Source: Chiloscyllium plagiosum (Eukaryota). Taken from it: a stretch of DNA of 64,000 nt. Where the stretch lies: NCBI RefSeq assembly GCF_004010195.1, contig NC_057713.1, positions 102,416,124 through 102,480,123 on the forward strand. Direction: 5' to 3'. The translations under genes were made by a program, and so were the position numbers. The first letter of the stretch is position 1; each line of letters starts with the position of its first letter. A model generated the notes under the pieces. The model was given only the letters and a program-made list of their open reading frames with translations, did no database searches and was not told the origin of the DNA. Positions 8,942 to 19,030 of the stretch are shown one piece after another.

Positions 8942-9480
8942 TGTGGGAGGTTAGAAATGTAGTTTCTGCAGGTGGGGGAGGGGAAGGGGAACATTATACA
9001 AACGATCGCGGACTTCTTGTAGCATGTCGCATACTTAAGGCTAAGACTTTAATGAATATAGAGGGTCTTTTAAAGAAAATAGTTTTAAGCTAGGAAATAA
9101 CTATGAAGGGTTGTAGCTGACCATAAAAAGAAGCAGCAGGGGCATTTCACAATAAAGCTTATGGTATGATAAGAGAAACTGGATAAAAGAACAAGCTGTA
9201 GCAAACAAGAAACAAAGAATGCAGACATACAATGACGGCAGGATGGCCAGGTAAGAAAATAACTAGAGAAAAAAACAAGTGAGGTAATCAGCTTATGATA
9301 GGATGGGAAAAGGGAGGCATGATTCCACAACTTGTAAACTGAATAAGAATGCTAACATGCTCTGTTTTTGCATGCATTTCTACTTGATTGCAGAAGCGTC
9401 CGGTACTTGCAAAGCTGTAATAAATTTTTCTTGTTTCCAAGGCTTTGTCTCAGGCTGATTTGTGACGTCTGTTTCCCACA
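8942..9480 (+). repeat. ERV 5' LTR
   Basis: TGTGGGA...TCCCACA terminal inverted repeats; AATAAA near 9419; direct repeat of 14160-14670. Confidence 0.95.
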
Positions 9481-9482
9481 AT

Positions 9483-9500
9483 TGGGGGCTCGTCTGGGAT
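9483..9500 (+). promoter_or_regulatory. Primer binding site, tRNA-Pro
   Basis: TGGGGGCTCGTCTGGGAT lies 2 nt after the LTR, one mismatch from the MLV PBS-Pro TGGGGGCTCGTCCGGGAT. Confidence 0.93.
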
Positions 9501-10497
9501 CCAAACCGCCGACCGCCCGACACTCTTGGGACGACGGGGGAGGTGCACCTCTCCAATTTCGGTCATCTCCGACTCTGTTGCTTGTCGTTCGCGGTTTGGG
9601 CGAGTACGATCTGGACTGGGAGACCCTAAAAACAAGGTGGGCAGACGCGGCAGGTTCAGTCGGGCAACTCTTGTGCACAAGACCCAGGTAGGGAAAGGTC
9701 TTAAAGGATATATCCGAGCGACCGGAGGCAGCGGTATTTGCTGCAGGAATTGCCGCGGGATGGGGCGCACCAACACAACCAGATAACTCTGTGCACAGAC
9801 CAAGGTAAGAAAAGAGACTTTTAAGTATTGCCTTGGTGGTCGGGACGTATGAAAGTACGGGGAATTTTGCGATATATAAAATAAAGCATATGTCAATGGA
9901 AAACAGCCCATGTCAGAAGGGCTAGTAGCTGAAGGGCTACTGAGGGTGCACTTCATAACTAGCTTATGGCCAGACGTCCAGAAGAATATTCAAAAGCTAG
10001 AGGAGTCGTTGCGGGAAGCTCAAAGTGTCTGTGAGATACGATGTCTGTGTGTGTGTGAGAGAGAGGGAGAGAGAGAAAAGAGCTGTACAGCTAGTAGAAA
10101 GTTTAACCCTTTGTGATTCAGTTTGAATGCACATTTGTTTGTTGGTGATTGAGTGTTTGTGCTTTGTTCCCTGGAGCTTGAGATCTGGGACTGTTTTGAA
10201 TCTGATTTCTACTATGGAAATTTTAACATGATTTCTTTTAAGGTTAAGGATTTTACAGATTATGAAATAAAATGTTAACTCCTGTTCTTTTTACAGGTCA
10301 TGACTGCCTTACTATCAGTTTCTAACTAATCTCTTTTATCCTTACATGAAAGTAATTTATGGAGAACAGTTGAAGTCTCAAAAAAACCATATAATTGGTC
10401 AGATTAATCGGACAAGTAAGGTGTCCAGTCAGGACCCTGAAGGGGGTGTGGAAGAAGGTGACACCAGACCTCGTTAAGATTAATTAAATTATCAACA

Positions 10498-12018
10498 ATG
10501 GGAGGCACGGGGAGTTGCCTGTGTAACGATCGATCTGTAAATAACGTTAAAGGGGATATATCCTGCCCGACAGTTCTTTAGGGAGAATGTTGGGTAATTG
10601 GGAACACAACTCCCCGACGCGGGAGAAAGATAAGGCCACAATGATAAACTATTGTTGTTTTGTCTGGACTAGAGAAAGTATTAAGGCGGTTGGTATTTTT
10701 TGGCCCAAATATGGGTCTGATGAGGATTGGCTGTGTCAAGATCTTAATATATATGTCAATCGAAAAGAACCGTACAGTCAAAAAGAGTCCGATTATGCGG
10801 CTTGTTGGATAGGGAGCGCAGGAGTAAAATTATGTCCCATGAATACGGAGGAATCAGGGAAAGAACAGAAAAAGAATGAACAAGGGAAGCCACAGTGGGA
10901 TCCCTTAACGTGTTTGCTGCCCCTGTATACTACTCCCCAGAACATGCCTTCAGCTCCCGAAGTAGAACCGAGTCCAGACACAGAAAAGGGAACGGACTCT
11001 GAACTAAAAGATGCAGAACCTAGGGGGCTCAGAATCACTCGAGCCACCACACGTAAAGGAGGGGCAGAGATAATGGAAAATGTAAAATTATGTCCCTTAC
11101 GAGAGGTTCCGATTGGGGAACGTACAATCGGATATGTAAACGCTCCCTTAACTAGAAGTAAAGTTAGGGTCTTTAAAAAGAAAATGAAAAGTTTAATGGA
11201 GGATCCGGTTGGACTAGCCGAACAATTAGATCAATTCCTAGGGCCTAATTTATATATCTGGGGAGAACTGATTGCAATTTTAGGAACGTTGGTTTCAGGG
11301 GAAGAACGAGGTATGATTAGGAGAGCGGCTTTATAGGAATGGGAAAAGAAGCACTCAGTTGGGGAAGAAGGGGCCCCAGCAGAACAGAAATTTCCAAATG
11401 TTGACCCTCTTTGGGAAAATAATAATAGAGAAGATAGGGAGTCAATGCGGAATCGACGAGAAATGGTAATATTAGGAATTAAAGAGACGGCACCTAGATC
11501 ACAAAACTTTGTTAAGGCCTTTGAAGTACAACAAGTGAAGGATGAAACCCCTTCTGCATTTCTTAAAAGGCTCAAGGATGCCACAAGGAAGTATTCGGGA
11601 ATGGATCCCAATAATCCGATAGCACAGGGACTCTTACAGGTCCAGTTTGTAACTAAATCATGGTCAGACATACAAAAGAAATTTCAGAAATTAGACGGAT
11701 AGAGTGAAAGACAGATGGAAGAACTGTTACGTGAGGCACAGAAGTGTATGTGAAAAGGGAAGACGAGAAGCAGAAAGAGAAAGCCAAAATGATGGTGGCG
11801 GCAGTAGAAGAAATAACAAAAAGGAGAATGGGATCAAGGGATAACAGGAAGGGTAGGGGAGGACACGAAAGACAAGTGTCAGATACCCGGGAAAGGAGGC
11901 AACAGGCAGGGTGTTACCATTGCGGGAAAGTGGGGCATTTTAAACGGGAATGCCCAGAATTAGCACGAGAAAGGGAAGCCGTTTCCCTAATGACCGTTTC
12001 CCTAATGATGAAGATTAG
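10498..12018 (+). pseudogene. gag: ERV gag (frameshifts and stops)
   Basis: MGGTGS myristoylation-type start; matrix-like MINYCCFVW...WPKYGSDEDW; capsid MHR-like QQVKDETPSAFLKRL; a single CCHC knuckle CYHCGKVGHFKREC; ends DED-TAG at 12016-12018. Confidence 0.92.
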
Positions 12019-12620
12019 GGGAGTCAGGGGTTTCTTCCTCCTGAGACCCACCAGGAACCCTTGGTAAATTTAAAGGTGGGACCTGAAGGGGAGGAGGCAG
12101 TATTTTTGGTGGACATGGGAGCGGCACAATCATCCCTAAGTTTTAGACCTACCGGTGTTAAATTGACTAACAAGAATCTCAGGGTTTCCGGAGTAAAAGG
12201 CAAGGAATTCTTGGTGCCTATTTTTGGGCCAACCCTAATTAGAGGAAATGATGAGGAAGTGACAGGACAATTACCAACTGTAGAGTTCAATGATAAGTTT
12301 TTAAAGAACTATATTGTGGTGCTCGGCTCTTCTTTGTCTGTCCTTAGGAAGAAGGGTCTGTTGACCCAGACACCTCCACTTGAGTTCGCCGTACATCGAA
12401 TACAACCAGGTGACTGGGTCCTGATCAAAACCTGGAAAGATACCAAACTGCACCCAAGCTGGGAGGGACTGTTCCTAACCCTCCTGACTATTGAAACAGC
12501 CATCCGAACTGCTGCACTTGTGTTAAGGGCCCCGTGGACGCTCCTTCCCCTCCGGCAGAGTGGCAAGCTCATCCTACAGACAACCCTCTGAAAGTCAAGC
12601 TGAGCAAAAAGAATGGACTG
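12019..12620 (+). pseudogene. pol: ERV pro fused in frame to the integrase C-terminus (RT, RNase H and IN core deleted)
   Basis: FLVDMGAAQS is a mutated DTG protease site. It runs directly into HRIQPGDWVLIKTW...WEGLFLTLLTIETAIRT, the integrase C-terminal GPY/F-type domain. Confidence 0.9.
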
Positions 12621-12748
12621 AGATAAGAGACTATTAAGTATTGGTTAAAAAAAAACTGTATCCCAAAATAATTGTAAGTGTTGCATGGACTCACTCCTCC
12701 CTGGTATTTAAAGGGTTAGGGAATAGACAGATAGGGTTGTGAGCTGAA

Positions 12749-14040
12749 ATGAATGGTCAGCTTTATGTTGTCACGATAATATTGGCGATAGCTGCCAAGG
12801 GGGGGGTGGGAAAAATCAATTTACCACTTTATGTCAGAATTATGCTAAACTAAAGGGGCATACCAACTGTTGGGTATGTGCTGAGATCCCACACCATGGG
12901 GAATCCGGAATTCCTCTCACAGTAATACCACTTACCAAAGAAGAAGTGTACGATGTACAACAATTTGACTTGGGCTCAAATGATACAACTTGGAGATTTG
13001 AAAGGGGTAATTATAACTTTGCGGGATGGTTCCTCGACCAGCCCCTAAAACCCCGGGCACTATCGATGGCCTTGGCGTTTCCCCACCAAAAGCAGTAAAT
13101 ACCACTTGTATTTACTGCATCCTTCCGATTAGGAAAATCACCAGCCAAGCTACTCCCATAACCTTTCCCCAAGTATTGAATGGGACATATTGGGTGTGTG
13201 GTTTAAAGGCCTACCCATTTATCCCCAGCAAGAAGTATGTTTGGAGTGGTGGATGTCACGGGAATGGGTGCTGGGACCATCCAGTTCAGACACTACCTCA
13301 AAGCCAGAAAGGCTGGAGTGGCTGCTGCTACCTCGCCCATATAATTCCCCACTTGAGGCTGTTAAAGAGAGCCCCAAAAATACCTCGGAATAAACAGGGA
13401 GGAAGGCGAGTAACCCGGAAAGTAATCGAAGGAGATCGCCTCCTCTGGACTTTGATACCTATGTATGGGACCGCTCGAGCAGGAATACAAAAGTTGGCAG
13501 CTTCCCTGGAAGAGTTGGCCAACAATACTGCTGATGCGTTGGCCGAAACCCAATCCCAAGTAGCAGCCATAACGACCGAAATGATTGCCACGAGGCTAAC
13601 GACCCTTCAGAACAGGATGGCTCTGGATTATATTCTAGAAGAGAAGGGTGGTACCTGTGCACTAATTGGAGAGGAATGTTGTACGTACATACCTGAGGTC
13701 TCCTCTAACATTACTGATATCTCCAAACATGGGCGAGACAAAATCGCCAAGGGAGGCCGGTAATCGGTACTGGAACGAAAAAGGATGGGAATGGGGGAAT
13801 TGGGGATTGACTGGTTGGGTAAGGTGGTTAGTCAATCTAGCTATCTATGGATTATTGATATTAGTGGGTCTGGTGGTAGGGTTTAATGTCCTACAATGGA
13901 TAATGAGCCAACTGATGACATCCCTTGGGAAAGGAACCCAAATAAATCATCAGATGCTTTTACAATCAGCAGGTGACATGCAACAAAGAGAAAGTCAAAG
14001 AATACTTCTAGAGTTCAAGGGACGAACAACACAAATGTAA
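12749..14040 (+). pseudogene. env: ERV env (frameshifted, internally deleted)
   Basis: Signal-like N-terminus; NCWVC (CXXC) in SU; TM ISD LQNRMALDYILEEKGGTCALIGEECC (CX6CC); hydrophobic anchor WLVNLAIYGLLILVGLVVGF. Confidence 0.93.
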
Positions 14041-14136
14041 AATGTAAGATTGTGAACCTCATCGCCAAAAGGCGTAAGAGGGCAGAACATAAGAAAATGG
14101 ATTAAAGGAGACTGAATAAGTGCAGAAACAACAGTT

Positions 14137-14159
14137 AGAGAAAAAGAAAAAGGGGGAAT
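14137..14159 (+). promoter_or_regulatory. Polypurine tract
   Basis: AGAGAAAAAGAAAAAGGGGGAAT immediately before the TG of the 3' LTR. Confidence 0.9.
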
Positions 14160-14670
14160 TGTGGGAGGTTAGAAATGTAGGTTCTGCAGGAGGGGTAAGG
14201 GGAACATTATACAAATGGTCGCGGGATTCTTGTAGTATGTAGCATACTTAAGGCTAAGACTTTAATGAATATAGAGGGTCTTTTAAAGAAAATAGTTTTA
14301 AGCTAGGAAATAACTATGAAGGGTTGCAGCTGACCACAAAAAGAAGCAGCAGGGGCATTTCACAATAAAGCTTATAGTATGATAAGAGAAACTGGATAAA
14401 AGAACAAGCTGTAACAAACAAGGAACAAAGAATGCAGACATACAAGGAAGGCAGGATGGCCAGATAAGAAAACAACTGGAGAAAAAAACCAAGTGAGGTA
14501 ATCGGCCTATGATAGGATGGGAAAAGGGAGGCGTGTTTCCGCAACTTGTAAACTGAATAAGAATGCTAACATACTCTGTTTTCGCGCGCATTTCTGCTTG
14601 ATTGCAGAAGCGTCCGGTACTTGCAAGGCTATAATAAATTGTTCTAGTTTCCAAGGCTTTGTCTCAGGCT
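14160..14670 (+). repeat. ERV 3' LTR (last ~24 bp missing)
   Basis: Homologous to 8942-9456; diverges after GTCTCAGGCT and lacks the ...TCCCACA end. Confidence 0.93.
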
Positions 14671-18329: not shown

Positions 18330-19030
18330 CATCGACCCGCCTGCTGGCTACCATCCAACTACGCATGCGTCGTGCCGGCTGCGACACAAGACGGAGTCCA
18401 CGCAGGCGCAGTACAGGCCCGACCGACATGGGTTCTGGGCACGCGCAGTGCTGCCAATCCGAATGGCGGACGAGTCGCCGGTGGTCAACATTGAGCAAAG
18501 TGAGTTCCGCGCAGGCGCAGTGCTGGGTGTGGTTCCTGCTGACTAATGTGAGTGCTGATAGCCGGTAGGTTGTGTCTATCACTGATGGATCGAGTGGCGG
18601 TAGTGAAGTTTGGTGCGGTGGCTGGAGCTGGCATATGTGTGCTTTTTGGAGGCGCCGTTTTAGCGCAATATATCTTCACCTTGAAGAAAAAAGCGGGCCG
18701 CAAGACCAAGATCATCGAGATGGTGAGTATGTGGATTTAAGGCTGAGCGGGGTCCCCGGTACTTGTTATTTACCCAGCGCCTGCGTGAGGGCTCCGGCTA
18801 CCGCCGCAGTCACAAAGTGCCGGGGTACCACCACCTCACAAAAGCCAACCCACACGTACCGGAGAAAAACAGCCACCTTTCCGGTACAGTAGAAGCCTCA
18901 GTAGGTGTGAGGCAGGTGAGATGCCGGCAGAGACGATCCCGTCACCAGGGAAAGGGGATGGCGGGAGCGCAGGGGAGGACGTCAAACGACCCCGGGGTTG
19001 GTAGGTGGAAGGCGACTCCCGCCGCGGGCG
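18330..19030 (+). promoter_or_regulatory. NT5C3A CpG-island promoter / first exon region
   Basis: CpG-dense; several NRF1-like motifs (ACGCATGCGT about 18361, GCGCAGGCGCA about 18509); CCAAT about 18454. Confidence 0.75.
18585..18722 (+). CDS. NT5C3A: NT5C3A exon 1 (hydrophobic N-terminal anchor)
   Basis: [46 protein letters not shown] followed by GTGAGT. Confidence 0.95.

Follow-up and report, generated by a model that had tools for sequence, protein, structure and literature searches.

A class I endogenous retrovirus from Chiloscyllium plagiosum with a probable collapsed second gag in its leader

Introduction

Fv1 and enJSRV Gag are Gag-derived restriction factors. In the accessible part of its description, Ty1 p22 corresponds to the whole C-terminal half of Gag, is identical to its target and is expressed (Tucker et al. 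2015, PMC4599808). Upstream of gag, Orf C of the fish retrovirus WDSV ends 7 bases before the gag gene and, according to the portion of the report at hand, has been detected as a protein (PMC3185748). For the pre-gag region of ERV-W, the consulted sections describe part of HERVIP10 pol together with an AG-rich tract, splice donor and acceptor sites and a possible reading frame, and recombination has been proposed for the HERVIP10 piece (Grandi et al. 2020, PMC6995185). Harlequin mosaics, in the sections consulted, carry a recombinant structure in many copies, for which co-packaging and template switching have been proposed (Vargiu et al. 2016, PMC4724089).

Here we compare with these systems the leader of a provirus from Chiloscyllium plagiosum, located within a stretch of 64,000 nucleotides (contig NC_057713.1, positions 102,416,124 to 102,480,123; hereafter the window). 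A sequence-only reading of the window had noted a short leader ORF resembling the capsid of the provirus's own gag, and had proposed either a capsid-derived accessory or interfering peptide or a recombination scar from a different ERV lineage.

Results

Organisation of the provirus and its leader

A class I provirus spans positions 8942–14670 of the window, with all features on the forward strand and the leader remnant inside it. The 5′ LTR (8942–9480; TG...CA ends) is a direct repeat of the 3′ LTR (14160–14670), the two differing by 33 substitutions in 509 columns (6.5%; K2P 0.068). Because the 3′ LTR stops at 14670, about 24 bases early relative to the 5′ LTR, no target-site duplication was readable. 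The sequence immediately after the 5′ LTR contains the primer binding site (9483–9500), presumably of the tRNA-Pro type. The provirus's own gag (10498–12018; Gag_p30 E 3.9e-27, zf-CCHC E 2.7e-7) is broken by stops and frameshifts, and a short tandem duplication near its end (11979–12007) shifts the frame. It is followed by a protease start fused to an integrase end (12019–12591; MLVIN_C E 1.1e-8, at most 500 nt past the gag end), with most of pol gone. At about 12275 the protease start passes directly into the integrase C-terminal domain, and since about 3 kb of pol is absent, this copy is incapable of replicating alone. A broken env follows (12749–14040, its start taken from reading the sequence; TLV_coat E 1.5e-10 on 13026–13760). 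Just 5′ of env, positions 12621–12643 resemble the leader at about 9810–9830 (21/23, E 3e-4), possibly as a shared signal or a small scar. Some 4 kb beyond the 3′ LTR and on the same strand, an ORF (18585–18740) has the look of a host gene's initial coding exon, possibly that of cytosolic 5′-nucleotidase 3A.

Relatives of the provirus's own gag were found in sharks, rays, birds, snakes and armadillo, and the closest named partial gag matches (69–82% identical) were from bamboo shark, so that sharks are the likely hosts of this ERV family. We provisionally label the provirus a HERV-I/HERVIP-like class I ERV, the RT being absent from this copy.

From the primer site to the gag ATG, the leader measures 997 nt. 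The sequence-only reading had considered this unusually long, a view that does not hold against the mean of 1021 nt given for gamma-like HERV leaders in the accessible part of that study (PMC6995185). The length also falls inside the range of about 0.4–2 kb of gamma-like pre-gag leaders. The leader contains 15 upstream ATGs, of which the fifth, in a weak context, opens the ORF at 9910. Scored against standard splice-site consensus sequences, positions 9805 and 10296 delimit a predicted intron containing 11 of the 15 upstream ATGs and the whole gag remnant. The donor at 9805 matches 8 of 9 consensus letters and ranks among the best 3 of the 300 GT sites of the provirus; the acceptor at 10296, with 14 pyrimidines in 18 positions and a branch-like site, is tied second to fourth of 170. 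These sites, whose arrangement resembles the pre-gag intron of ERV-W, are predicted to excise the remnant from spliced RNAs, and the donor may also simply be that of env. Two similar 30-base motifs (at 9666–9699 and about 120 bases downstream) were seen by eye in the leader, both of which end in a donor-like site.

The leader ORF contains a remnant of the capsid C-terminal domain

The 68-codon ORF (9910–10116) starts with an ATG at a junction between matrix-like and capsid-like sequence. As the sequence-only reading had proposed, it aligned to the provirus's own gag at 11619–11741, with 14 of 26 residues identical in the first block, 21 of 41 columns identical when an 8-codon gap was included, and the same residue at 21 of the 33 codons. 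The protein alignment scored 98 and the DNA alignment 81. No control came as high: the best of 1000 shuffles scored 53 for the protein, and the best of 1000 dinucleotide shuffles 43 for the DNA. A profile built from 75 related gags found the same block with E values of 6e-9 on the ORF and 1.1e-5 over the six frames of the window. The earlier observation that many differences at conserved residues are synonymous likewise stood, with 17 of the 21 identical residues using a different codon and 35 of 99 bases differing between the leader block and the provirus's own gag. These silent differences are a trace of selection that acted on gag genes prior to the capture rather than on the piece in the leader.

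The remnant (9925–10029, with a 24-nt gap after 9999) comprises the three helices that close the capsid C-terminal domain. The earlier reading had described it as a second C-terminal domain; the homology was confirmed, but the block covers only profile columns 350–388, about half of the domain. The provirus's own gag maps onto the MLV capsid structures 6HWW and 6GZA, with 1BM4, the peptide of the major homology region, falling N-terminal to the block that the leader matches. Neither that region nor the first helix was detectable in the leader, where columns 160–345 fitted no better than shuffles (69 of 80 as good). Moreover, the 8-residue gap has removed from the leader copy W427, a residue of the loop ahead of the last helix that all 17 of the 17 gags compared have in common. 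The block presumably opens with the capsid dimer helix. The structure predicted for the ORF was one long helix (pTM 0.43); an intact half-domain control likewise formed no bundle (pTM 0.34).

Searches with the ORF alone gave no match to Pfam Gag_p30 and no PDB relatives. Homologues were found neither among proteins of 37–119 aa nor among those of 120–2000 aa (24 candidates, none scored). Among 1.84 billion cluster representatives searched with 9820–10113, the sole match was P0076, an unrelated repeat protein. Viral contigs yielded no related loci, and metagenomes two short ones, neither extending to a leader.

The ORF ends in a TG/AG simple repeat (10046–10082) that differs among copies. A derivation of this repeat from the charged helix that follows the capsid was considered and is unsupported (profile, 1 of 200 shuffles in one of six tests; DNA, 95 of 1000).

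A matrix piece lies directly upstream of the capsid remnant

Directly 5′ of the capsid remnant, seven codons (9889–9909) match the matrix region of the provirus's own gag at 17 of 21 bases (10752–10772). None of 300 shuffles reached this value, for a stretch chosen after the match had been seen; by profile the piece was not significant (27 of 200 shuffles). Sibling copies found in sequencing runs (below) extend the resemblance: before 9911, the loose ends of five contigs in run X10 and seven in run X13 continue like the own gag at 10773–10802, with 22 of 30 letters alike by eye in the X13 loose-end row (binomial tail 3e-7). By their sequence, these longer siblings retain more matrix ahead of the same capsid block. 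In the longer form, read in that register, the matrix frame reaches the stop that the window has at 9923 and is not in phase with the capsid block, and the shorter form, seen in this copy, shifts the frame.

Because the matrix piece stands directly 5′ of the capsid remnant, we read the leader as holding a collapsed second gag, made of matrix and capsid end, rather than a lone capsid piece. Everything between the matrix and the last capsid helices would accordingly have been lost from this leader gag.

Many sibling copies from three organisms carry the remnant

Part of the region 9480–12100 was present in 20 runs from 11 studies. We compared siblings in four of 24 listed runs, with contigs aligned over 9822–10044: X2 and X10 from organism A, X13 from organism B and X15 from organism C. 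One of the organism A runs is possibly the source of the window itself, while B and C are independent.

The remnant was carried by 48, 326, 255 and 28 contigs in X2, X10, X13 and X15, respectively. Among the 32 records listed of 657, the matrix–capsid junction is bridged by nine and the gap site by 11, the latter always without the missing 24 letters. No joints appeared among the sibling alignments listed. Loose ends at 10036–10038 enter TG/AG repeats whose composition varies, a feature of the leader but not of gag. That these ends run into the leader's repeat speaks against most of the sibling contigs being ordinary gags. Single contigs reached depths of 202 and 261, against 6–14 for others, which points to many near-identical copies, although depth itself is no copy number. 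One contig each in X2 (at 9997) and X13 (at 10003) continues gag-like across the 24-nt gap, that of X2 with 17 of 30 letters like the own gag by eye. Such contigs could possibly be donor-like gags or an older, ungapped form of the leader.

The remnant is therefore family-wide, common to many copies in three organisms, and no one-off scar; the presence in siblings that the earlier reading had called for was borne out. It is scarcely credible that the resemblance is a chance match or a rearrangement confined to a single provirus. The failure of the ORF alone to match Pfam or PDB entries would fit such an account, which is contradicted by the shuffle tests (0 of 1000) and by the same junction and gap in hundreds of sibling contigs from three organisms.

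The remnant is probably not maintained as a protein

In the siblings, a G commonly replaces the A of the ATG at 9910, accounting for 119 of 168 depth units in X2, 3928 of 4226 in X10, 1728 of 2553 in X13 and 52 of 71 in X15 (71, 93, 68 and 74%). GTG is a weak translation start. The neighbouring base varies too, a pattern of CpG decay, and the ATG at 9910 is, to judge from these bases, likely a late, CpG-type change. Of the earlier claim that the ORF has its own ATG, the presence of that codon thus stands, but it is the minority state in the family, besides its weak context and fifth position. A stop at codon 20, another invariant Trp, occurred in one, four, two and two contigs of the four runs, with shares of depth of 11, 11, 2 and 8%; those in X10 had a mean depth of 116 per contig. 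Copies stopped at codon 20 therefore likely kept multiplying.

Codons 1–33 contain at least 23 variant sites among those listed, 16 changing an amino acid and seven silent. Excluding CpG-type sites and sites at which the window holds the minority state left 11 changing and four silent among the sites listed. The ratio of changes was 0.67–1.12, and neutrality was never rejected (P 0.33–1.0). An omega of 0.2 was always rejected (P at most 0.023), and an omega of 0.3 in five of nine settings but not in the other four (P 0.05–0.14). Contig variants mix changes from the replicating era with later neutral decay, which biases the ratio towards 1. As to the frame, the 24-nt gap preserves it, and four of 11 gap-bridging records differ in length by other than a multiple of three, possibly through gaps in the tail. 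No indel with a share of at least 5% fell inside 9910–10044 among the 12 rows listed of 13, all 12 lying at 9841–9872.

The check proposed in the sequence-only reading, whether siblings keep the ORF open with dN/dS below 1, gave no support on start, stop or ratio. Because the ATG is a minority state, the codon-20 stop is present in all four runs and the ratio is neutral, the remnant is likely not maintained as a protein.

These data bear most directly on a short capsid-helix peptide, present or past, that would bind Gag and block assembly in the manner of Ty1 p22 or act as an accessory resembling WDSV Orf C. The 68 open codons of the window copy, the in-frame gap, the first helix (presumably the dimer helix), the lack of a frequent indel in the block among the rows listed, and an omega of 0.3 that was not always rejected would all suit such a peptide. 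The ATG, besides being the minority state in the family and weak in context, is preceded by four others; multi-copy lineages of three organisms carry the codon-20 stop alongside a neutral ratio; the major homology region and the conserved Trp are missing; the tail is a variable simple repeat; and no related protein was found at near or longer lengths or among the cluster representatives. We consider an accessory or interfering peptide, one of the two readings first proposed, quite improbable.

A function at the RNA level, with the non-coding remnant selected as a leader element for packaging, dimerisation, splicing or translation control, also seems unlikely. It would account for the presence of the block in three organisms with few frequent indels (among the 12 indel rows listed of 13) and for its position between a strong predicted donor and acceptor. 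Gamma-like leaders, in the part of the survey available, do carry such signals (PMC6995185). But the predicted fold of 9900–10044 is no better than that of shuffled sequence (z −0.27), an Rfam search of 9820–10600 gave no match, variation reaches at least 23 sites in 99 bases, and one X10 contig of depth 261 (record 6) lacks everything from 10006 to the repeat.

The donor may belong to a different lineage

The leader block was nearest to P0001 (19 of 31 residues identical), compared with 17 of 31 for the provirus's own gag. In the tree, the leader row rests on 31 columns, over which it could not be placed; a second tree used 23 selected of 68 rows. Sisterhood with the own gag was rejected (p-AU 0.029), but membership of that gag's wider clade was not (p-AU 0.107). 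It is plausible that the donor of the remnant was a different ERV lineage than that of the own gag. Of the proposed recombination scar, the scar itself was thus upheld, extended by the matrix piece and found throughout the family, while a separate lineage for its donor is plausible.

Discussion

Our analysis makes it quite probable that the leader carries a collapsed second gag, common to many copies in three organisms, which arose in one recombination event and has been carried along without coding for protein. The make-up and spread of the remnant, and the lack of a common start or frame, were observed directly; from these we infer a route. A template switch during reverse transcription could have brought the 5′ part of a gag-deleted element, with its leader, matrix end and capsid end, ahead of a whole gag. 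Later deletions would then have trimmed the leader gag, and the family would have expanded with the remnant aboard. In the window copy, a junction deletion may have joined the two pieces in one frame, after which a CpG-type change would have created the ATG. By this route, the 68-codon ORF would be an accident of the window copy. The remnant could be tolerated in that gamma-like leaders are long spacers and the predicted splice sites would excise it. Persistence in three organisms is permitted, not predicted, by neutrality.

More speculatively, an ancestor might have kept the collapsed gag for a dimer-helix peptide damping its own assembly, as a counterpart of Ty1 p22, with constraint relaxed after the element came to depend on helpers, and duplication and collapse might explain long pre-gag leaders in general; to this scenario as a whole we give very little credence. 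If the peptide reading were true, the element would be a vertebrate retrovirus encoding an inhibitor of its own capsid; the siblings speak against this.

The locus illustrates one specific way in which a long gamma-like pre-gag leader can originate, namely from a second gag collapsed in place, and the nested deletions of that gag can serve as markers for sub-lineages of the family across species. It is also a warning that an open gag-like leader ORF in a single copy can be accidental. Mosaic pre-gag leaders were already known; the collapsed-gag content appears to be new. A search of mostly open-access literature returned no description of a gag collapsed within the leader of an ERV.

Comparison with the described systems, as far as the accessible parts of the reports go, separates this leader first from Gag-derived inhibitors. 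Like Ty1 p22, Fv1 and enJSRV Gag, the remnant derives from Gag and includes capsid C-terminal helices. Unlike p22, it spans 35 codons, is 64% identical to the own gag, and lacks a kept start or coding constraint. Judged by an open frame, a kept start and purifying selection, the leader ORF did not behave as a restriction factor. It shares with WDSV Orf C a position upstream of gag in a fish retrovirus, but ends 381 bases before gag, is itself gag-derived and has no conserved frame.

The mosaics are closer. As in Harlequin, the recombinant structure is repeated across copies, and the window copy is also without most of pol; here, in contrast, a short second gag precedes the real one, and the siblings are known over 9822–10044 only. 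Closest are the pre-gag leaders of ERV-W and other gamma-like HERVs, with which this locus shares a leader of about 1 kb, a captured retroviral gene piece, an AG-rich tract and a putative ORF, along with splice donor and acceptor sites that are here consensus-like sequences. As in those gamma-like mosaic leaders, the captured piece is common to many copies. In ERV-W, however, the captured piece is HERVIP10 pol, whereas here it is a collapsed gag, in what is likely a shark family and with splicing that is predicted only.
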